NCBI RefSeq assembly: GCF_044324875.1
Contig: NZ_CP172187.1
Length of the DNA: 64,000 bases
Reading direction: 5' to 3' (one strand)
DNA from: Escherichia coli
GTDB taxonomy: Bacteria > Pseudomonadota > Gammaproteobacteria > Enterobacterales > Enterobacteriaceae
Part shown: positions 12,789-51,312 of the stretch, piece by piece
Layout of the letters: each line of letters begins with the position of its first letter
Position numbering within the stretch: position 1 is the first letter of the stretch
Position numbers and translations under genes: made by a program
The notes under the pieces: model-generated
What the model saw: the letters and a program-made list of their open reading frames with translations, nothing else
Databases searched by the model: none
What the model was told of the DNA's origin: nothing

Positions 12789-13027
12789 GGGTGATGTTCT
12801 TTAAAAATCAGGATTTATTTCAGGCTCCGGCAATACGCATTTATGTGTTCTGTCAGTCATCCGGCTGGCAGGTAATGAGAACGCAGGAACAGAAGGAGGA
12901 AAACACCGGAGAACGTCAGACGCAGATATGAAAAAAGCAGGCCGGGGAGGACCTGCTTAATCCACACCGCAAAAACTGTTCGAGCAGTTTCTGCGGTTCC
13001 ATTCAACAGTCATAAGGAGTTTCATTT

Positions 13028-13258
13028 ATGACGGTAAGTATTGTTTCACCTTCCGCAGCGGCTGTAAAGCCCCGCCGTCATCCCCGTTTCAGACGCGAAG
13101 ACATCCCCGCGCCGGAAATTGACCCCGTGCTGAAAGCCTTCGGGCGACACATAGCCCGGAGTTTTCACCGGGGGCGTGGTGTACACATCCCCGCCATGAA
13201 AAACACGGCCTTCGGGCAGGTGCTCCGCACACTCGAACTGAAACGCGCTTTTAACTGA
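13028..13258 (+). CDS. hypothetical basic small protein (76 aa)
   Basis: AAGGAG RBS; first ORF after repeat B1. Confidence 0.45.
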   Translation: MTVSIVSPSAAAVKPRRHPRFRREDIPAPEIDPVLKAFGRHIARSFHRGRGVHIPAMKNTAFGQVLRTLELKRAFN

Positions 13259-16187: not shown

Positions 16188-19100
16188 ATGGCAGTTCGTG
16201 GCATTAACAAGGTCATTCTTGTCGGTGTGCGCCGTTGAAGCGCGGTGTTTTATGGAGTGTTGCCTGAAAAGCAACATGGCTTAGTGGTATAGCCATTGCA
16301 TACTGTGGTTAGCCTTGCTTGGTAACAGGCTCGGAGATCCTGAAAAGGAGAGGTGAACATAGCATCCACAGAAAAGGGTGGTGAATATGGAAATCGTTAT
16401 AAGTATCACCATTCAATGCAAGATGTATATGGATAAACTGGGTTTGTTGAAGTCGAGATCTATGTGGGAAACAGGAAACCAATAACGCAGAACGATTGAA
16501 GCGTTATTCCCGTACTAGCACAAGAAATCCGTCCGACGTTGATTGTGACCACTCTAACGGGCCAGCTATTGATGAAATAGTTAAACGATCGAAAGACATC
16601 CTAAGTACATCGCATCTCCACACCGTGAAACTACGGGACTACCTAAACTGGATTTATACCCAGCATGGTAGCGGAGTCTCCATAGTACTCAAGGTCGGCC
16701 TGTAATGGGTTCCGGCAGTCCGCATTATACGGAAGCAGCAAAGGTATAAATCAACCGGAAGGAAGATGAAAGCCTCACAGTGCTGCGGGGAAGGGAGACA
16801 GTTGTTAGATACATCAATCTCTAAGAGGAGGGTTAGCCAATGCTGCCTGATGAACTTGAGAAAAGATTAGATGGAATTGAGGATGCTTCAAAAAAAGGGT
16901 ATCCAGTACGTAATCTATACAAAATTGCGTGTGAGCCCGGACTGTGGCTGCAAGCCTACGTGAATATACGGGCCAATGCAGGTGCACTGACTCAAGGTGT
17001 ATCAACAGATACCATTGATGGCTTTTCTATCGAAAGAGCAGAGAAGCTGGCAAAAACATTGCGGAGTAGAGAATACGTAGCGAAACCTGTACGCAGAGTT
17101 CAGATCCCAAAAAAGGACGGAAAAACCAGACCGCTGGGGATTCCAGGTGGAGACGATAAACTGGCGCAAGAAGTAGCAAGAATTATTCTGGAAAGGGTTT
17201 ATGAACCAGTATTCTCTGAACACTCTCATGGATTCAGACCAAAACGTTCGTGTGAAACTGCGCTCAGATCTATTCGTCCAGTCTGGAACGGAGTTAAATG
17301 GATCGTGGATGTTGATATCAAAGGTTTCTTTGACAATATCCCCCACAAACTATTGCTGAATACACTGGCAGAGAAAATTAAGGATAAGAATTTCCTGAAA
17401 TTAATCGAACAGTGGCTGAAGGCAGGATATGTGGACAATTGGAAATACCATCGCTCATATTCTGGCACGCCACAAGGTGGGATAATTTCTCCCTTACTGG
17501 CAAATATATACCTCGACAAACTGGACCGTTTTGTAGAACAGAATTTAATTCCTGCATATACAAGCGGTACAAAACGAAGAGCGAATCCAGATATGAACAG
17601 GCTGGCCCATAAGATTCATAAACTACGAAAGAAAGTAGACGGTATGGCAACTGATTCTGAATCAGAAAAAGAAGCCATAAAGAAAGAAATTGAACGACTG
17701 CTTGAAGAAAAACGTTCTATACCATCTCAGGTCATGAACGATCCAAACTTCAGGCGTATGTACTATGTTCGATATGCTGATGACTTCGTAATCGGTGTCA
17801 TCGGCTCGAAGAAAGATGCTGAACATATATCAAGACAGGTCAGAAACTTTATTACTACTTCACTGGGATTGGAAGTTAATGAAGCAAAGACCAGGATCCG
17901 CCATATCTCAGAAGGAGTTAATTTTTTAGGCTATGAAATCAGACAGGCAGATGCAAAGAAATTGCTGAAGCAGAAAATGCAAGGGCGGCACGCTCTCCGG
18001 AGATCCACCACAGGAATTGTGCAGCTCTTCGTTCCTGACAATATAGCCGCTAAATTTTGTCACCAAAAGAAATATGGCTGTTATGAGAATGTGAAGGCTG
18101 TACATCGTTCAAGTCTACAAAATCTCAGTGAAGCTGAAATTGTTCTGACTTTCAACGCGGAAATGCGCGGATTGGCGAACTACTACAGTCTGGCGCTGGA
18201 CATGAAATATAAATTATCAAAATTATATTTCATATGGCAAATAAGCCTTTTTAAGACCCTGGCGAATAAACGACGTAGTTCAGTGAATAAAGTCGCCAAA
18301 TCGCTACGGCAAAATAATGGAGATCTGGCTATTACCGTTCAGGCCAAAAATGGATCCCGAAAGATTGAGGTTTTCAAACTCAAACATGTCAATCGCAACC
18401 GAACAACGATTGTCGATACGGAACCGAGAACCGCACATATCACAACCCGCACAACAGAGATCATGCGTCGATTAGGGGCAAGGATCTGCGAGTATTGTGC
18501 GAAGACTGGGCGCTGCGAAGTACATCATGTCAGAAAGCTAAAAGACCTGAAGAAAGGTCGTAAGGCCGGATATAAACCCAGCTTGTGGCAACTAATGATG
18601 ATCGCACGCCGCCGGAAAACGATGATTTTGTGCGCAAGTTGCCACGACAAGTTACATAGCGGAAAACTACCCGATTTGAGACAGGAAAAGGGAAGAATAC
18701 TCCTGCAACCACCTGTCTCAAGCGGGGATTCTGCTAAATGAGTTTATCCCCAATAAGCTAGCAATGGAGAGCCGTATGCACTGAAAGGTGCACGTACGGT
18801 TCGGAGGGGGGGTAACGGTGATCTAACTCAAGATAAGCAGGACATATTCGCCATTTATCTTGAAAGACCACACGTACCCTACCCTACCGTCTGGGAAAAG
18901 ATCCGGAAGTCCGTTACATCCCAAACGGGGGCGCAGTGGCAAACCTGCAGGTGGCCACGTCAGAAAGCTGGCGCGACAAACAGACGGGGGAGATACGGGA
19001 GCAGACAGAATGGCATCGCGTGGTGCTGTTCGGCAAGCTCGCGGAAGTGGCTGGTGAGTATCTGCGCAAGGGCGCGCAGGTCTACATCGAAGGTCAGCTT

Positions 19101-39640: not shown

Positions 39641-39668
39641 GTCATGTTAATCAATAAGAGGATCGATT

Positions 39669-39980
39669 ATGAAGGTGGGGGTAATAAGAAATAAGCACGC
39701 AGAGGACTTCAGAAAAATATGTCTTCTGTTTATCCGGTTAACGAGCAATGTATTAAAACTGTTTCCTTTTGCTATGGTGATGTGCTCTGTGGTGTGGTTT
39801 TATTTTTGCCCTGAACATATTCTCTCAGACATTGTTAACGACTGGCACGATGCAGATACACTGGAAAAAATACGGATTGTCAGACTGTATCTGAAGACGT
39901 CTTTTATTCTGACAGTGGTGGGCGTTGTTATTTCATATCTTTCTTCAGATAAGTTTATGCCCGTTAAGCGCAGGAAATGA
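39669..39980 (+). CDS. hypothetical small membrane protein (non-core, AT-rich)
   Basis: 103 aa; AGAGGA RBS; two hydrophobic segments. Confidence 0.5.
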   Translation: MKVGVIRNKHAEDFRKICLLFIRLTSNVLKLFPFAMVMCSVVWFYFCPEHILSDIVNDWHDADTLEKIRIVRLYLKTSFILTVVGVVISYLSSDKFMPVKRRK

Positions 39981-40042
39981 GTCTGGCGGTTCTCATAAAT
40001 ATAACCGTGTGTGCATGTGTACAATATAAGTAAAGGTGCGTT

Positions 40043-40564
40043 ATGGGATTTTTCTCGTTTTTACGAAAGATAAGTAATAAAGAAAAAGGGGTGGTTATCT
40101 ATGAGAAGCAGTGGTTCTCACTGCTGGAAAAGGTGAGTGCTTTTGATGAGGTCAGACAATGGGCTGAAAGTAATGGTGGAGCATATTATCCTCTGCTGGA
40201 GTGTCGTCGGCTTACAGACAGTGAAGATGTCAGGAAATCAGAGGATATACTGAACCGACTGGAGTTTATTGACAGAAGATTTCGGGAATTCATCAGCATT
40301 ATGTCTGAACATATTAATAATGATAAAACTAAATCCATGTGGGAGAGGGAATTGTCTGAATATCCACCGGAAAAAATATACCAGGTCCGGAGAGAGGGAG
40401 AACATCTGTCATTAAAAAATTACGGTGATGATATTACTCTGAACAGAGATACCGCCGTGGCTACGGTGCAGATTACTGTCAGCAGAAAATGCATTACTCA
40501 GGAAGAAATGGATGAATTATATGCATTGTCTGAGAGACTGAAAGAAAAGTGCGCCGGTAATTAA
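40043..40564 (+). CDS. hypothetical protein (173 aa, non-core, AT-rich)
   Basis: ATG after AAAGGTG; no family recognised. Confidence 0.5.
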   Translation: MGFFSFLRKISNKEKGVVIYEKQWFSLLEKVSAFDEVRQWAESNGGAYYPLLECRRLTDSEDVRKSEDILNRLEFIDRRFREFISIMSEHINNDKTKSMWERELSEYPPEKIYQVRREGEHLSLKNYGDDITLNRDTAVATVQITVSRKCITQEEMDELYALSERLKEKCAGN

Positions 40565-40590
40565 ATTATATCACTGTGCCGGGAGATGAT

Positions 40591-41229
40591 ATGAGCCGGA
40601 AAATATTTGTACTTTTTGCCCTGACAGCAGGACTGTTTATTTCTGCCCATGCTTCGGAAAATGTGAATACACCCGAAAACCGCCAGTTCCTGAAGCAGCA
40701 GGAAACACTGAGTCAGCAGTTACGTGAAAAACCGGACACACAGCTGCAGGCATGGGCAGAACAGCAGGTCAGGGCGAATCCCCTTCAGCATTCCGATAAC
40801 CAGTTTCTCGATGAACTGGTCCGTAAACAGCAGGCTTCGCAGGGTGATAAACCACAGCAGGGTGCCCTGTATTTTGTGTCGTTTTCCATACCCGAAGAGG
40901 GGCTGAAACGGATGCTGGGTGAAACCCGGCACTACGGTATTCCGGCCACGCTGCGGGGCATGGTGAACAACGACCTGAAGACCACCGCTGAAGCCGTGCT
41001 GTCCCTGGTGAAAGACGGCGCGACTGATGGTGTTCAGATCGACCCGACGCTGTTTTCACAGTACGGCATTCGCAGCGTTCCGGCCCTGGTGGTGTTCTGC
41101 AGCCAGGGGCACGACATCATCCGGGGAAACCTGCGCGTCAGGCAGGCGCTGGAGAAAGTGGCCGCCACAGGAGACTGCCGGCAGGTGGCTCAGGGACTGC
41201 TGGACGGCACCGGGGATAAATCGCAATAA
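40591..41229 (+). CDS. trbC: TrbC
   Basis: 212 aa from MSRKIFVLFALTAG; GGAGA RBS. Confidence 0.8.
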   Translation: MSRKIFVLFALTAGLFISAHASENVNTPENRQFLKQQETLSQQLREKPDTQLQAWAEQQVRANPLQHSDNQFLDELVRKQQASQGDKPQQGALYFVSFSIPEEGLKRMLGETRHYGIPATLRGMVNNDLKTTAEAVLSLVKDGATDGVQIDPTLFSQYGIRSVPALVVFCSQGHDIIRGNLRVRQALEKVAATGDCRQVAQGLLDGTGDKSQ

Positions 41230-41276
41230 GTTTACCTGCAGGCTATTACCGGATTGACCCGGACATCCGTGCACTG

Positions 41277-41597
41277 GTGTCCGCGATGAACGTGCATGGA
41301 TTTCGTACATATGCGTCCTGTCAGGGGCATGGCTTCCCTGTTACGAAACTGCCGCCTTATATCGCCTTTTCCTGTCCGGTAAAAATGGCTGCCCTTCTGG
41401 AGCAGCGACTGCGGCAGGATGCTGAATCAGCAATACCACGTCTGACATGGGGATGGTCGGTGAAGGGGACTTTTAACAGTGATTTTCAGCTTTGCTTCCG
41501 GCTTCAGCCTGAAAGCCCTCATCACTGGTATCACCGGTACTGTCGCCGCTCACTGCGTGCAGACTTCAGGACGCTGGTCCGCTTACTGAATCCGTAA
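41277..41597 (+). CDS. hypothetical protein (start uncertain)
   Basis: ORF only; no clear RBS. Confidence 0.35.
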   Translation: MSAMNVHGFRTYASCQGHGFPVTKLPPYIAFSCPVKMAALLEQRLRQDAESAIPRLTWGWSVKGTFNSDFQLCFRLQPESPHHWYHRYCRRSLRADFRTLVRLLNP

Positions 41598-41621
41598 ATC
41601 TGTTCCCGTAAGGAGGCATTG

Positions 41622-42044
41622 ATGGCGCTGACAAAGAAGCAGCGGGAAAAACTGCGTATGAAATTCGGCGGTCGTTGTGCGTACTGCGGCTGTGAACTGC
41701 CGGAAAAAGGCTGGCATGCCGACCATGTTCAGGCGGTGCTCCGCAAGTCAGAGCAGTGCATGAAGGCTGCAGAAAAGCGCATTTTCAGGCTGAAATCCAC
41801 CGGTGATGTTTTCAGACCGGAGGCCGACTGTCCGGAAAACCTCGTCCCGGCCTGTGCGCCGTGCAACCTGCTGAAAACAACATATTCGCTGGAGATGTTC
41901 AGAACGCAGGTGTCCCTGCAGGTTGAACGGGGGCGAAGAAGCAGCGTGAATTTCAGGACCGCAGAACGGTTCGGGCTGATTCAGGTGGTGAACAAACCAG
42001 TCGTGTTCTGGTTTGAGCAATATCAGAGGGAGAGTGAGGTATGA
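41622..42044 (+). CDS. HNH endonuclease-family protein, translationally coupled to traN
   Basis: CAYCGC...HADHV...CAPCN motifs; AGGAGG RBS; ATGA overlap with traN. Confidence 0.75.
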   Translation: MALTKKQREKLRMKFGGRCAYCGCELPEKGWHADHVQAVLRKSEQCMKAAEKRIFRLKSTGDVFRPEADCPENLVPACAPCNLLKTTYSLEMFRTQVSLQVERGRRSSVNFRTAERFGLIQVVNKPVVFWFEQYQRESEV

Positions 42045-43891
42045 AACGTCTTCTGCCATTGCTGCTGGGGCTGGCAGTCAGTGTGGCACAGGCTGACAGC
42101 AACAGTGATTACCGGGCGGGTTCTGATTTTGCCCGTCAGATTCAGGGGCAGGGTACAGGCAGTATTCAGGGCTTTAAGCCACAGGAGAGTATCCCCGGCT
42201 ATAACGCGAATCCGGACGAGACAAAATATTACGGTGGAGTGACTGCCGGCGGGGATGGCGGCCTGAAAAATGACGGCACCACGGAATGGGCGACCGGTGA
42301 AACCGGAAAAACTATCACAGAGTCATTCATGAACAAGCCGAAAGACATTCTTTCACCGGATGCGCCGTTTATCCAGACCGGCAGGGATGTGGTGAACCGG
42401 GCTGACAGCATTGTGGGAAACACCGGGCAGCAGTGCAGTGCGCAGGAGATAAACCGCAGTGAATTCACAAACTATACCTGTGAGCGGGACACGATGGTGG
42501 AGGAGTACTGCACACGGACTGCCAGTATCACCGGGGACTGGAAATACACGGATGAATATCGTGAGGTGACGATACCGCACTCACAGTTCCAGTTCAGTAT
42601 GAACGGGCTGAAACTGGTGTTCAGTGTCACGGCTCCGGTAACCGGTACAGTGGAAAGTGCATCATTGTCTGTATACGCCGCTTTTTTCTTCCTGAATTCT
42701 CGTTATACCTTCATGAATTCGACGTTCAATGTTGGCCTGGTAAACGGGCAGTCGGGTACTTTCCCCTTGTCCGGGGCGACAGGTTTGCAGGTGACACAGG
42801 GGCAGGTTCTGACCGGTAGTGGCTGTACTGCAAACGGTAATTGCCTCCCGCACGGGAACGGTGACAGGAAAGTCTATGAATCGCTTGTCAGTGGTGCTTC
42901 CACCTTTACGCTGAAACTCAGGATGAAGGTCCGTGATAAAGAATGGGTTCCCCGGGTGGAGTGGGTGGAGAGTTGTCCGTTTAATAAAGCGGATGGCGTG
43001 CTGAAAGGCACTGAGTGTTCAGAGCCGGGGGGTACGAAAACGGGTGTGATGGAAGGTAAACCCTGGAGCATCACACAGGCATGCTGGGCATACCGGGATA
43101 AATATGTCACACAGTCCGCAGATAACGGCACCTGTCAGAAATATGTCGATAATCCGGCCTGTACGCTGGCCTCACGTCAGTGCGCGTTTTATTCCGATGA
43201 GGGAATCTGTCTGCATGAGTATGCCACGTACTCCTGCGAGTCCAGAACATCAGGAAAAGTGATGGTCTGTGGTGGTGATGTCTTCTGCCTTGACGGTGAA
43301 TGCGATAAGGCACAGAGCGGAAAAAGCAGTGATTTTGGTGAGGCTGTATCACAGCTGGCTGCGCTTGCCGCCGCAGGTAAGGATGTTGCCGCCCTGAATG
43401 GTGTGGATGTCAGGGCTTTCACGGGCGAGGCGAAATTCTGCCGTAAGGCCGCAGCCGGCTTCAGTAACTGCTGTAAGGATGGTGGCTGGGGTCAGGATGT
43501 GGGGCTGGCGAAGTGCAACAGTGAAGAAAAGGCACTGGGAAAGGCAAAGGACAACAAACTGACGGTGAGTGTGGGCGAGTTCTGTTCGAAAAAGGTACTC
43601 GGTGTCTGCCTGCAGAAAAAGCGCAGCTACTGCCAGTTTGATTCGAAACTGGCGCAGATAGTCCAGCAGCAGGGGCGTAACGGGCAGCTGCGTATCGGGT
43701 TTGGCAGCGCCAAAAGTCCTGACTGCCGTGGAATAACCGTGGATGAACTACAGCGTATTAAGTTCGACCAGCTGGACTTCACTAACTTCTACGAAGACCT
43801 GATGAATAACCAGAAAATCCCGGACAGTGGCGTTCTGACGCAGAAAGTGAAAGAGCAGATTGCTGACCAGCTGAAGCAGGCAGGACAATAA
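42041..43891 (+). CDS. traN: TraN (Cys-rich outer-membrane mating-pair stabilisation protein)
   Basis: 616 aa; signal peptide; many conserved Cys. Confidence 0.9.
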   Translation: MKRLLPLLLGLAVSVAQADSNSDYRAGSDFARQIQGQGTGSIQGFKPQESIPGYNANPDETKYYGGVTAGGDGGLKNDGTTEWATGETGKTITESFMNKPKDILSPDAPFIQTGRDVVNRADSIVGNTGQQCSAQEINRSEFTNYTCERDTMVEEYCTRTASITGDWKYTDEYREVTIPHSQFQFSMNGLKLVFSVTAPVTGTVESASLSVYAAFFFLNSRYTFMNSTFNVGLVNGQSGTFPLSGATGLQVTQGQVLTGSGCTANGNCLPHGNGDRKVYESLVSGASTFTLKLRMKVRDKEWVPRVEWVESCPFNKADGVLKGTECSEPGGTKTGVMEGKPWSITQACWAYRDKYVTQSADNGTCQKYVDNPACTLASRQCAFYSDEGICLHEYATYSCESRTSGKVMVCGGDVFCLDGECDKAQSGKSSDFGEAVSQLAALAAAGKDVAALNGVDVRAFTGEAKFCRKAAAGFSNCCKDGGWGQDVGLAKCNSEEKALGKAKDNKLTVSVGEFCSKKVLGVCLQKKRSYCQFDSKLAQIVQQQGRNGQLRIGFGSAKSPDCRGITVDELQRIKFDQLDFTNFYEDLMNNQKIPDSGVLTQKVKEQIADQLKQAGQ

Positions 43892-43914: not shown

Positions 43915-44163
43915 ATGATGAAGGTCATATTCACGTCGAACCGTTTTATTGATTTTCTTATCCGGCTTTTGATTACAGCGATTGTCATTTCCCCGGTAAT
44001 TATCTGGTCGTGGGATACGGTAAAAGAAACCACGGCAGACGGGATGCCTGCCGCTGCTTTCGTTATCCTTTACTCCGGTGTGCTCCTGTTTATTCTGTAT
44101 TTTTGTTTTTCTGCCCTGACCTGCAGAAAACCGATGAAAGAAAAAATGATGAAAGGAATGAAG
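43915..44163 (+). CDS. trbE: TrbE-like small membrane protein; no stop codon before the in-frame traF start
   Basis: Frame continues uninterrupted into traF (ORF 43915-44907). Confidence 0.55.
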
Positions 44164-44907
44164 ATGAATAAAGCATTACTGCCACTGTTACTCTGCTGCT
44201 TTATTTTTCCGGCGTCAGGGAAAGATGCAGGCTGGCAGTGGTATAACGAGAAAATAAATCCGAAGGAAAAAGAAAATAAACCTGTACCTGCAGCCCCCCG
44301 TCAGGAGCCGGATATTATGCAGAAACTGGCCGCGCTGCAGACGGCAACAAAGCGGGCGCTGTACGAAGCCATTCTGTATCCCGGCGTGGATAATTTTGTG
44401 AAATATTTCCGGCTGCAGAATTACTGGACTCAGCAGGCCGGGCTTTTCACCATGAGTGCTAAAAAAGCTATGCTGGCACATCCCGAACTGGACTATAACC
44501 TGCAGTACAGCCATTACAACGGCACGGTCCGGAACCAGCTGGCGGCAGACCAGGCGCAGCAGCGACAGGCCATTGCGAAACTGGCTGAACACTACGGCAT
44601 CATGTTCTTTTACCGGGGGCAGGACCCCATCGACGGGCAGCTGGCGCAGGTCATTAATGGCTTCAGGGATACCTATGGTCTGAGTGTTATTCCCGTTTCC
44701 GTGGATGGTGTGATTAATCCGCTGTTGCCGGATTCCCGGACTGACCAGGGGCAGGCGCAGCGCCTCGGCGTGAAATATTTCCCGGCCATGATGCTGGTTG
44801 ACCCGAAACAGGGCAGTGTTCGCCCGTTATCATACGGCTTTATTTCGCAGGACGACCTGGCAAAACAATTCCTGAACGTTTCTGAAGATTTTAAACCCAA
44901 TTTTTAA
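44164..44907 (+). CDS. traF: TraF (thioredoxin-fold pilus assembly protein) with own signal peptide
   Basis: 247 aa from MNKALLPLLLCCFIFPASG. Confidence 0.85.
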   Translation: MNKALLPLLLCCFIFPASGKDAGWQWYNEKINPKEKENKPVPAAPRQEPDIMQKLAALQTATKRALYEAILYPGVDNFVKYFRLQNYWTQQAGLFTMSAKKAMLAHPELDYNLQYSHYNGTVRNQLAADQAQQRQAIAKLAEHYGIMFFYRGQDPIDGQLAQVINGFRDTYGLSVIPVSVDGVINPLLPDSRTDQGQAQRLGVKYFPAMMLVDPKQGSVRPLSYGFISQDDLAKQFLNVSEDFKPNF

Positions 44908-48493: not shown

Positions 48494-51312
48494 ATGAAGT
48501 TTATGTGATTGCCGGTGGTGAGTGGTTGCGGAATAACCTGAATGCCATTGCCGCCTTTATGGGAACCAGAACGTGGGATTCCATTGAAAAAATTGCGCTC
48601 ACATTGTCTGTTCTCGCGGTGGCCGTAATGTGGGTACAGCGGCACAACGTGATGGATTTGCTGGGCTGGGTGGCCGTGTTTGTGCTTATCAGCCTGCTGG
48701 TTAATGTCCGTACATCGGTGCAGATTATTGATAACAGTGACCTGGTCAAAGTTCACCGGGTGGATAATGTGCCGGTCGGACTGGCGATGCCACTTTCACT
48801 GACGACCCGTATCGGGCATGCAATGGTGGCCAGTTACGAGATGATCTTCACGCAACCGGACAGTGTCACCTACAGCAAAACGGGGATGCTGTTTGGCGCA
48901 GAACTGGTATCAAAAAGCACCGACTTTTTGTCCCGTAATCCGGAAATCGCCAATCTTTTCCAGGATTATGTGCAGAACTGCGTGATGGGGGATATTTACC
49001 TGAACCACAAATATACGCTGGAGGAGCTGATGGCCTCCGCTGATCCCTACACGCTGATTTTTTCCCGCCCCAGCCCGCTGCGGGGCGTTTATGACAGCAA
49101 TAATAATTTCGTAACCTGTAAGGACGCTTCGGTTTCGCTGAAAGACAAGCTGAATCTGGACACACAGAGTGGCGGAAAAACCTGGCATTATTATGCCCAG
49201 CAGCTATTTGGCGGACGCCCTGATCCTAACCTGCTGTTCAGTACGCTGATTGGCGACAGTTACAGTTACTTCTATGGCTCAAGTAAATCAGCCAGCCAGA
49301 TCATCCGCCAGAATGTCACCATCAATGCGCTGAAGGAGGGGATCACCAGTTATGCCGCACGTAATGGTGATTCGGCCAGCCTGGTGAATCTGGCCACCAC
49401 GTCATCGATGGAGAAACAACGTCTGGCACATGTATCAATCGGTCATGTGGCGATGCGGACACTGCCCATGACGCAGACCATCCTGACGGGGATCGCCATC
49501 GGTATTTTCCCGCTCCTGGTACTGGCGGCTGTATTCAACAAACTGACGCTGTCCGTCCTGAAAGGCTATGTGTTTGCCCTGATGTGGTTGCAGTCATGGC
49601 CAATGTTGTACGCCATTCTGAACAGCGCCATGACATTTTATGCAAAGCAGAATGGTGCACCGGTGGTGCTCTCGGAAATTTCACAGATACAGCTGAAATA
49701 CTCCGATCTGGCTTCCACTGCCGGGTATCTTTCCATGATGATCCCGCCATTATCCTGGATGATGGTCAGGGGGCTCGGGGCAGGATTTTCCAGTGTGTAC
49801 AGCCATTTCGCTTCCTCTGCTATCAGCCCGACCGCCAGTGCAGCAGGCAGTGTGGTTGACGGTAATTACTCCTACGGCAACATGCAGACGGAGAACGTGA
49901 ACGGCTTCAGCTGGAGCACCAACAGCACCACGTCGTTTGGTCAGATGATGTACCAGACCGGCAGTGGCGCAACTGCCACACAGACCCGTGACGGTAATAT
50001 GGTGATGGATGCAAGCGGAGCGATGTCCCGGTTACCGGTCGGCATCAATGCAACGCGTCAGATTGCGGCGGCACAACAGGAAATGGCCCGGGAAGCATCG
50101 AACAGAGCAGAAAGTGCCCTGCATGGGTTCAGCAGCAGTATTGCCAGTGCCTGGAACACGCTCAGTCAGTTTGGTTCTAACCGGGGGAGCAGTGATTCTG
50201 TCACCGGTGGCGCTGACAGTACGATGAGCGCACAGGACTCCATGATGGCCAGCCGTATGCGCAGTGCAGTGGAAAGCTATGCGAAGGCGCATAATATCAG
50301 TAATGAGCAGGCGACTCAGGAACTGGCATCCAGAAGTACGAGAGCTTCTGCCGGGATGTATGGAGATGCTCATGCTGAATGGGGGGTTAAACCTAAAATT
50401 CTTGGTGTTGGTGGAGGATTAGGTGTTAAAGGTGGTGGTCGCGCTGGTATTGATTGGGAAGATAATGATGCGCATACGGCAAGTAGTAATACTCAGTCGA
50501 GCCATAATGCTCGTCATGATATCGATGCCAGAGCTACACAAGACTTTAAAGAGGCCAGCGATTACTTTACCAGTCGCAAGGTCAGTGAGTCCGGCAGCCA
50601 TACTGACAATAATGCTGATTCCCGTGTGGATCAGTTGTCTGCAGCCCTGAACTCAGCAAAACAGAGTTACGACCAGTTCACGACGAATATGACCCGCAGC
50701 CATGAATATGCTGAAATGGCATCCCGTACTGAAAGCATGAGTGGGCAGATGAGTGAAGACCTGTCGCAACAGTTTGCACAGTATGTGATGAAACACGCGC
50801 CGCAGGATGCCGAAGCTATTCTGACAAACACCAGTTCACCGGAGATTGCAGAACGCCGTCGGGCTATGGCGTGGTCTTTTGTTCAGGAACAGGTGCAGCC
50901 TGGTGTTGATAATGCCTGGCGTGAATCCCGTGGGGACATCGGTAAAGGAATGGAGAGCGTACCTTCGGGTGGTGGCAGCCAGGATATTATTGCTGATCAT
51001 CAGGGGCATCAGGCCATTATTGAGCAAAGAACGCAGGACAGTAATATCCGTAATGATGTAAAACATCAGGTTGATAATATGGTCACAGAATACCGAGGCA
51101 ATATCGGAGATACTCAGAGCAGCATACGTGGCGAAGAAAATATTGTAGGAAGACAGTATTCTGAACTACAAAATCACCATAAAACAGAGGCATTATCTCA
51201 GAATAATAAATATAATGAAGAAAAATCGGGTCAGGAAAGAATGCCCGGGGCTGACAGTCCACAGGAACTGATGAAAAGAGCAAAGGAGTATCAGGATAAG
51301 CACAAGCAATAA
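48490..51312 (+). CDS. traG: TraG (mating-pair stabilisation / entry exclusion determinant)
   Basis: 940 aa MNEVYVIAGGEWLRNNLNAIAAFMGT... Confidence 0.9.
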   Translation: MNEVYVIAGGEWLRNNLNAIAAFMGTRTWDSIEKIALTLSVLAVAVMWVQRHNVMDLLGWVAVFVLISLLVNVRTSVQIIDNSDLVKVHRVDNVPVGLAMPLSLTTRIGHAMVASYEMIFTQPDSVTYSKTGMLFGAELVSKSTDFLSRNPEIANLFQDYVQNCVMGDIYLNHKYTLEELMASADPYTLIFSRPSPLRGVYDSNNNFVTCKDASVSLKDKLNLDTQSGGKTWHYYAQQLFGGRPDPNLLFSTLIGDSYSYFYGSSKSASQIIRQNVTINALKEGITSYAARNGDSASLVNLATTSSMEKQRLAHVSIGHVAMRTLPMTQTILTGIAIGIFPLLVLAAVFNKLTLSVLKGYVFALMWLQSWPMLYAILNSAMTFYAKQNGAPVVLSEISQIQLKYSDLASTAGYLSMMIPPLSWMMVRGLGAGFSSVYSHFASSAISPTASAAGSVVDGNYSYGNMQTENVNGFSWSTNSTTSFGQMMYQTGSGATATQTRDGNMVMDASGAMSRLPVGINATRQIAAAQQEMAREASNRAESALHGFSSSIASAWNTLSQFGSNRGSSDSVTGGADSTMSAQDSMMASRMRSAVESYAKAHNISNEQATQELASRSTRASAGMYGDAHAEWGVKPKILGVGGGLGVKGGGRAGIDWEDNDAHTASSNTQSSHNARHDIDARATQDFKEASDYFTSRKVSESGSHTDNNADSRVDQLSAALNSAKQSYDQFTTNMTRSHEYAEMASRTESMSGQMSEDLSQQFAQYVMKHAPQDAEAILTNTSSPEIAERRRAMAWSFVQEQVQPGVDNAWRESRGDIGKGMESVPSGGGSQDIIADHQGHQAIIEQRTQDSNIRNDVKHQVDNMVTEYRGNIGDTQSSIRGEENIVGRQYSELQNHHKTEALSQNNKYNEEKSGQERMPGADSPQELMKRAKEYQDKHKQ

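Follow-up and report, generated by a model that had tools for sequence, protein, structure and literature searches.

We analysed a small predicted HNH nuclease gene that lies between trbC and traN in a stretch of 64,000 nucleotides (nt) of Escherichia coli DNA (contig NZ_CP172187.1 of assembly GCF_044324875.1; hereafter the window). The region that holds the gene is the tra operon of an F-like IncF plasmid, and RefSeq gives the local order as traW, traU, trbC, a hypothetical protein, "HNH endonuclease signature motif containing protein", traN and traF. In E. coli, Klebsiella and Salmonella, genes for antibiotic resistance and virulence travel mainly on IncF plasmids. The 831 base pairs (bp) around the HNH cassette match E. 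coli plasmid pTB-nb3 and three other plasmid records at 100%, and the same stretch is found at 95-99% identity in 500 more plasmid records from Escherichia, Klebsiella, Salmonella and Shigella; at 95-100% identity, the whole stretch was counted in 507 public plasmid records. The features of the junction are listed below, where the gene of the hypothetical protein, an open reading frame (ORF) of 123 amino acids, is called ORF123.

40591-41229, plus strand: trbC, F-type pilin assembly gene (Pfam TrbC_Ftype, E=1.9e-19; RefSeq coordinates)
41226-41597, plus strand: ORF123, conserved hypothetical protein (RefSeq coding sequence WP_021534930.1; alignment of 19 family members)
41598-41621, plus strand: spacer with the HNH gene's own Shine-Dalgarno sequence AAGGAGG at 41610-41616 (from the sequence)
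41622-42044, plus strand: predicted stand-alone zinc-ribbon HNH (H-N-N variant) nuclease gene, 140 amino acids (phrog_2118, E=8.7e-58)
42041-42044, plus strand: ATGA overlap of the traN start ATG and the HNH stop TGA (from the sequence)
42041-43891, plus strand: traN, mating-pair stabilisation protein (Pfam F_T4SS_TraN, E=1.3e-78)

Fit of the HNH gene into the tra operon

An earlier reading made from the letters of the window (the sequence-only reading) had described the HNH gene as translationally coupled to traN through an ATGA overlap. Direct inspection of the sequence bears out this overlap: the HNH frame runs to the TGA at 42042-42044, and the ATG of traN occupies 42041-42043. The same overlap is kept in the Salmonella virulence plasmid pSLT, and in F the equivalent overlap joins trbC and traN directly. 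Judged by RefSeq coordinates, four-base overlaps are the norm across the tra operon of the window. The length of 141 amino acids given by the same reading was taken from a TTG start at 41619 in the ORF list and does not stand. The likelier start is the ATG at 41622, giving 140 amino acids, because the ribosome-binding site, the RefSeq start and the N-terminus all fit it. Specifically, this ATG lies 5 nt after the perfect AAGGAGG, is the start used in RefSeq, and yields the N-terminus M-A-L-T that is common to homologues. The identical spacer (41598-41621) lies directly 3' of trbC in the E. coli IncF plasmid pHNAH33, which is without ORF123.

At the other end of the gene, the non-conserved C-terminal tail of the HNH protein (...QRESEV) encodes the Shine-Dalgarno sequence of traN, GGGAG (42028-42032), 8 nt before the ATG; in F, this sequence is supplied by the tail of trbC. 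No promoter-like sites and no plus-strand terminator-like sites were found in 41230-42044, and without a promoter or terminator of its own the cassette should be read through from the tra promoter. As far as can be judged from these signals, the HNH gene is probably co-transcribed with the tra operon, and translation of traN would now depend on sequence within the HNH gene. An imprecise deletion of the HNH gene would be penalised, since the translation signals of traN sit inside it. The junction thus appears to illustrate a way in which a translationally coupled operon can take up a foreign gene and stay intact, with the inserted gene taking over the delivery of ribosomes to the next gene.

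We also considered how the cassette might have come to this place. Foreign base composition was rejected, because the guanine-plus-cytosine (GC) content of the cassette is 53-56%, like that of the tra genes and unlike that of an insert between traU and trbC (38-42%). A transposon-like insertion was rejected as well, since the only direct or inverted repeats at its flanks were short matches of the kind expected by chance.

The HNH protein, its relatives and its probable role

The assignment of the gene to the HNH-type nucleases, also made in the sequence-only reading, is upheld by a full-length match to phrog_2118, a family of phage HNH endonucleases (197 bits, residues 1-138), and by the retention of all catalytic and zinc residues. 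That reading had named the absence of the catalytic His/Asn residues on alignment as an observation that would speak against a nuclease. This objection fails, because His35, Asn73, Asn82 and both CxxC pairs are present in the window protein. In an alignment of 49 diverse homologues, C19, C22, N73, C78, C81 and K85 were invariant, and D34, H35 and N82 were conserved in at least 90% of the members; all of them are present in the window protein. The general-base histidine of HNH nucleases corresponds to H35, in W-H-A-D-H; N73 is the structural Asn, and N82 (in CAPCN) is the third metal ligand, on the alpha-helix, which makes the protein an H-N-N variant; the zinc site consists of the two CxxC pairs, C19/C22 and C78/C81. 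The whole pattern, CxxC...W-H-x-D-H...N...CxxC-N-xx-K, is that of a zinc-ribbon HNH (H-N-N) nuclease. An exhaustive search gave 1,463 homologue clusters at 50% identity, of which 553 had E <=1e-10. The gene is already annotated in RefSeq (protein WP_001229309.1), and it is ordinary in kind, being a member of a known family.

The AlphaFold2 model of the protein had a predicted local distance difference test (pLDDT) score of 95.3, and the PDB matches listed by Foldseek were nearly all HNH nuclease domains, mainly the HNH domain of Cas9 and Cap5 of the cyclic-oligonucleotide-based anti-phage signalling system (CBASS), as well as Gme HNH, with match probabilities of up to 0.98; the model thus has the beta-beta-alpha-metal fold. 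By sequence profile, the closest solved relative was the nicking endonuclease Gme HNH (4h9d, E=1.7e-7). The layout CxYCG...DH...N.VPxCxxCNxxK is the same in both proteins; however, in the window protein a beta-hairpin of ~25 residues is inserted after the DH motif and before the N motif, a further ~50 residues form a helical region at the C-terminus, and the identity is only about 18-22%. Small zinc-ribbon HNH enzymes of phages and prophages have been reported to be Mn2+-dependent, site- and strand-specific nickases with a specificity of 3-7 bp. We infer that the HNH protein is a metal-dependent enzyme that nicks or cuts DNA. The T4 endonuclease VII family (PF02945) was also tried and rejected, as its match was below threshold (E=0.17, 12.3 bits vs 23.6). 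PHROG families named "endonuclease VII" match the protein partially (E=4e-10 and 1e-6), with the layout CxxC...HxDH...CxxCN in common.

Translated searches found homologues of the HNH gene in 179 phage genomes. The closest, at 87% identity, belongs to the P22-like Salmonella phage g341c, in which it occupies the early-left "ea" accessory region; the record of this phage itself notes a likeness to "PSLT094.1N" of pSLT. Others are in the E. coli siphoviruses Bas77-80 and HC6 (81%) and, among replication and methylase genes, in Sashavirus (69%). Phage proteins of phrog_2118 (g341c gp24, Bas77_0001 and Sasha gp76; 69-87% amino-acid identity) equal the window protein in size, in zinc and catalytic motifs and in the C-terminal FRxAxRFG...VVFWFE region; they differ in that the window gene sits in a plasmid tra operon and not in a phage genome, and the family name is an annotation only. 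A packaging role of the HK97 gp74 type was considered as well. HK97 gp74 is likewise a small phage HNH protein, and the Bas77-80 homologue lies ~800 bp upstream of the large terminase gene; however, there is no terminase on the plasmid, the other phage homologues are far from packaging genes, and the hhalign probability was 2.3%, so that this role was rejected.

On plasmids, a family member was found in 2,706 of 72,556 records, 2,452 of which are predicted to be conjugative. IncF-type copies at an identity of at least 90% account for ~720 records. The remaining copies are mostly 52-62% identical and are carried by large IncHI1/IncHI2 and other plasmids. IncHI-type copies stand in runs of small accessory genes and not beside a traN homologue. 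In a neighbour-joining tree, the IncF copies (window, E. albertii and pSLT) form one clade, which has the g341c gene as its sister and is nested within the enterobacterial phage genes, and the IncHI copies form a separate clade. Judging from this tree, the IncF copies evidently share a single origin. Homologues at 55-71% identity were located as follows.

IncHI2, IncHI1B and MOBH plasmids: L021 4890-5423; L024 4893-5417; L022 4794-5468; L023 5001-5429

Some of these four are N-terminally extended, and their neighbours are small hypothetical genes, together with a PAPS-reductase-family gene and DUF6012, or with dam, rdgC and dnaN.

We consider it probable, if far from settled, that the HNH gene encodes a phage-derived, stand-alone zinc-ribbon HNH nuclease of the beta-beta-alpha-metal type, carried as an optional accessory cassette between trbC and traN and standing outside the mating-pair machinery. 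The sequence-only reading had placed the nuclease inside the mating-pair-formation operon and had named identity with a standard non-nuclease tra component as something that would speak against it. The gene is no such component, and its location in the tra operon is correct; a functional part in the mating machinery is not borne out. F and the majority of F-like plasmids lack the gene, and it shows neither of two traits of core F-type mating-pair-formation genes, presence in F and conservation across F-type systems. The protein would be produced as long as the tra operon is expressed, in transfer-competent donors and presumably in new transconjugants. The gene might persist for two reasons: a selected function of its protein, and its wedged position, in which imprecise loss would harm traN expression. 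Not conjugation as such but the mobile element would be the likeliest to benefit, with the protein acting on DNA of foreign or rival origin. If the HNH protein cuts rival plasmids or phages, the junction would be a simple case of nuclease-mediated competition between conjugative plasmids. If the gene is only a passenger, the gain is mainly a cleaner annotation, with the start codon put right, the upstream gene recognised as real and the junction usable as a marker with four states.

The sequence comparisons argue that the encoded protein is under selection. Between the window and pSLT, the nonsynonymous (dN) and synonymous (dS) divergences of the HNH gene were 0.047 and 0.62, respectively (dN/dS 0.076), and dN/dS between the window and phage g341c was 0.056. 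The flanks gave a dS of 0.96-1.25 between the window and pSLT, so that the value for the HNH gene is lower and of the same order. Constraint of this strength indicates that the gene is not a decaying remnant. A remnant without protein function, whose DNA is kept only for the translation signals of traN, would fit with the 3' tail that supplies the ribosome-binding site and ATGA coupling of traN, and with the one frameshifted allele known. However, dN/dS was 0.06-0.08 in both plasmid-plasmid and plasmid-phage comparisons, the catalytic and zinc ligands are intact, and 539 records encode the full-length protein at an identity of at least 95%, which together leave this explanation hardly credible.

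Several observations weigh against the accessory-nuclease reading or limit it. Purifying selection argues for a function, yet it does not constrain which function. In E. albertii plasmid pEA16-3_1, one nucleotide is deleted close to the 3' end of the HNH gene (L025 1020-1496); the gene thereby loses the FWFE motif conserved at the C-terminus, the frame reads 52 nt into traN, and RefSeq has no protein there, indicating that the HNH gene can be lost without obvious plasmid loss. The Foldseek E-values were weak (0.03 at best). The Pfam HNH family PF01844 scored 18.9 bits against a cut-off of 21.4 (E=0.0018), the match covering only the C-terminal half of the motif. The score falls below the cut-off because the insertion of ~25 residues splits the HNH motif, and it is for this reason that the RefSeq name is only "HNH endonuclease signature motif containing protein". 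In addition, a full-text literature search found no activity, expression or phenotype data for any member of the family. Nor did the same search return any paper on an HNH gene located between trbC and traN in F-like plasmids; the sole match that combined the terms concerned the HNH cargo genes of the Orientia RAGE element, which are unrelated (PMC10732058).

A genuine role in conjugation, such as the processing of DNA or a requirement for making TraN, would be in keeping with the location of the gene within the tra operon and its translational coupling to traN. We regard this as very unlikely, considering that the gene is absent from F and from ~80% of F-like plasmids, which are conjugative, that pEA16-3_1 with its frameshifted allele is typed as conjugative by MOB-suite (an in-silico call), and that the closest relatives are phage genes. 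A parallel is provided by the small non-essential ORFs of F-like tra operons (such as trbA, trbE, trbF, trbJ and artA), which, like the HNH gene, are optional, embedded in the operon, variable and joined by 4-nt overlaps. These differ, however, in being mostly small membrane proteins without an enzymatic motif, whereas the HNH protein is a cytoplasmic predicted nuclease of phage ancestry.

The distribution of the family also bears on a defence or counter-defence role, in which the nuclease would be switched on at cell entry or in piliated, phage-exposed donors and would degrade phage DNA or a component of host defence. The family is widespread on conjugative plasmids and in early or accessory regions of phages, the IncHI homologues stand in their runs of small accessory genes, and there are weak motif-level matches to Septu PtuB and retron HNH effectors, all of which could fit such a role. 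On the other hand, the PADLOC matches were confined to 20-30 residues at the zinc or HNH motifs, with E-values of just 6e-4 to 6e-3; no partner ATPase or sensor gene adjoins the 140-residue nuclease, which is without a regulatory domain; and carriage by lytic phages is ill-suited to host defence. We therefore consider this role improbable. Identity with a known anti-phage defence protein was rejected, as the PADLOC matches (PtuB and PDC-M01B, E=6e-4 or weaker) were at the level of the motif only, as were the defence-type matches in NCBIfam.

States of the trbC-traN junction and the upstream ORF123

The junction between trbC and traN is an optional slot that occurs in four states: empty, with the ORF only, with HNH only, and with both, the last being the state of the window. 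Among the 3,458 PLSDB records that matched the flanks, 536 have the whole cassette, and in most of the others the junction measures 686 bp, 815 bp less. With a synthetic "empty junction" as the query, 2,928 contiguous empties were counted. The cassette is present in about 15-20% of the F-like plasmids surveyed, the nuclease gene stands in the transfer operon of about one in five, and ~80% join trbC directly to traN. The ORF-only state, in which an ORF of 126 amino acids is followed by unrelated sequence in some plasmids, was estimated at ~150 records by subtraction from the 687 records with an ORF123 identity of at least 80%. In one such plasmid (L012 3196-3429, minus strand), an ORF of 77 amino acids with a CxxC...C motif and a hydrophobic helix lies between the 126-residue ORF and traN, and in plasmids of this type the RefSeq traN appears to be extended at its 5' end by ~100 nt. 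The junction is therefore a hotspot for small cassettes of several kinds. The four states provide a marker that is useful for typing tra operons.

The HNH-only state was found in pSLT, which has an HNH gene of 139 amino acids with its own ribosome-binding site, and in pHNAH33 (L028 741-840), whose HNH protein is identical to that of the window and whose flanks are 99.4% identical. pHNAH33 is without exactly window positions 41230-41597, the body of ORF123, so that the trbC stop is followed directly by the ORF123-HNH spacer; this could be a deletion or the ancestral state. For pSLT, the claim that ORF123 was lost by deletion was dropped, because no ORF123 remnant is recognisable in the spacer between trbC and HNH. 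Local alignment of that spacer with ORF123 was no better than that of shuffled sequence, with 198-233 of 500 shuffles reaching the score.

We compared the flanks of the cassette with those of an empty-site plasmid. The last 60-nt bin of trbC was 53% identical, vs 93-98% just upstream, and the first bin of traN was 75% identical, vs 93-98% in the next six bins. The last ~60 nt of trbC, ending ...GDKSQ* with the stop TAA, and the first ~60 nt of traN, the signal peptide region, are therefore cassette-linked alleles. The cassette was always tied to the same flank alleles, and no empty junction with cassette-type flanks was present among the ~2,930 contiguous empties. Note that the diverged flanks coincide with the naturally variable TrbC tail and TraN signal peptide.

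Such a pattern raises the question of whether the gene encodes an active homing endonuclease of the free-standing type or a weapon of interference. The enzyme would cut the F-type trbC-traN junction without a cassette on an F-like plasmid that shares the cell or is entering it; RecA-dependent repair from the cassette-bearing plasmid would then copy in the cassette with short flanks, or the rival plasmid would be destroyed. The presence/absence polymorphism at one precise junction between conserved genes fits this proposal, as do the divergence limited to ~60 nt on each side, which is how co-conversion tracts or target-site immunity would look, and the lack of empty junctions with cassette-type flanks. 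Furthermore, the phage relatives occupy several non-syntenic positions and are squeezed between genes, like the free-standing homing genes of phages. The T4 seg and mob genes indeed resemble the HNH gene in being small wedged-in nuclease genes with presence/absence polymorphism and localised flank divergence; they differ in that the window HNH gene shows no sign of repeated independent invasions, the IncF copies being of single origin. The monophyly of the IncF copies and the constant flank linkage fit equally well with one old insertion followed by descent and ordinary recombination, and the sporadic distribution in conflict with the carrier phylogeny that repeated invasions would leave was not seen. 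In addition, a dS of the same order in the HNH gene and its flanks gives no sign of recent sweeps, the cassette is present in only about 15-20% of plasmids, and the diverged flanks are the naturally variable regions of both proteins. F-like plasmids rarely co-reside, owing to entry exclusion and incompatibility, and this also counts against homing or interference. An active homing or interference gene of this kind is, in our judgement, rather unlikely, and the same applies to the broader proposal of a sequence-selective nuclease used between F-like plasmids, whether it cuts the cassette-free junction or another site on a rival plasmid or phage. If true, it would be a homing or interference system acting between conjugative plasmids rather than phages, in which the rival is eliminated or converted to the cassette allele.

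Regarding ORF123, the sequence-only reading had considered the ORF upstream of the HNH gene, given as 106 amino acids, to be poorly supported. This view has to be revised, as the ORF belongs to a real gene of 123 amino acids (41226-41597) of a conserved family under purifying selection (dN/dS 0.15-0.19). The 106-residue version, starting at the GTG at 41277, is a shortened view of the longer gene, whose frame is open from 41220. In relatives, the start codon is an ATG that corresponds to window 41226 and shares an ATGA with the stop of trbC. In the window, positions 41226-41229 read ATAA, which changes the trbC stop from TGA to TAA and the ORF123 start from ATG to ATA, and ORF123 looks weak there because of this mutated start. 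The canonical ATG has evidently been lost in the plasmid lineage of the window, as read from this comparison. RefSeq nevertheless calls the 123-residue protein despite the ATA.

The ORF123 family comprises 135 clusters at 90% identity, with lengths of 120-175 amino acids, most members being on Enterobacterales plasmids. None of these clusters contains a Pfam domain, and no phage homologues of ORF123 were found. The motifs GxRTYASCQGHG, PYxAF, LRxDxE and GW were invariant among the 19 aligned members, which go down to 54% identity, and the AlphaFold2 model had a pLDDT of 84. A TYW3-like fold (TYW3 / UPF0130) was rejected, since there was no significant fold or sequence match. Without HNH, the family occurs at the F-type junctions traW-traU, downstream of traF, trbB-traH and traH-traG, and after virB11 of the chromosomal P-type cluster of Bordetella sp. 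FB-8; an environmental version of 225 amino acids lies beside TIR-domain genes.

ORF123 family members: L003 5001-5396; L005 5001-5444; L006 5001-5384; L019 5001-5396; L018 6001-6414; L015 6001-6678

The gene junction occupied by the family differed from one examined conjugation operon to the next, and these positions give ORF123 the look of an accessory protein that recurs in type IV secretion operons. It is possibly an uncharacterised family tied to type IV secretion that has been inserted at five or more F-type junctions and in one P-type operon. In HNH-bearing lineages, ORF123 looks dispensable, because pSLT and pHNAH33 do without it and the window has a mutated start codon for it.

These distributions bear directly on the proposal that ORF123 and HNH form a two-gene system, with ORF123 as an immunity, specificity or inhibitor protein of the nuclease. 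The two genes are adjacent, co-oriented and 24 nt apart, and ~536 plasmids have both. However, HNH is common in phages, where ORF123 has no homologue at all; ORF123 occurs without HNH at all the junctions named above, including that after the P-type virB11; HNH occurs without ORF123 in pSLT, pHNAH33 and IncHI plasmids; and the start codon of ORF123 is mutated in the window. We conclude that ORF123 and HNH are independent modules and not a pair, because each is found without the other. The two-gene proposal is thus largely refuted already, and we give it next to no credence.

Further features of the window

The insert between traU and trbC is an AT-rich stretch of ~950 bp (window 39641-40590) with two ORFs, 39669-39980 (103 amino acids) and 40043-40564 (173 amino acids), for which no significant match was found in Pfam, NCBIfam, PHROGs or PADLOC. 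It is not in F, and it is present in 550 plasmid records, roughly equal to the number with the HNH cassette. Downstream of traN, trbE of the window (43915-44171) has a 4-nt deletion relative to F around 44116, corresponding to one CTGA of CTGACTGA. Therefore, the frame continues into traF, giving an ORF of 330 amino acids (43915-44907). RefSeq annotates only traF in this stretch.

Rfam matches in the window comprise AS-pc01 (12932-13033), the sok antitoxin RNA (22997-23173), the traJ 5' untranslated region with FinP (27181-27290), AS-traG (49209-49294) and AS-traI (61274-61350), which are regulatory RNAs expected of an F-like plasmid. In addition, a match to the group II catalytic intron (RF00029, 67 bits) lies upstream of the tra operon at 18767-18887 on the plus strand.

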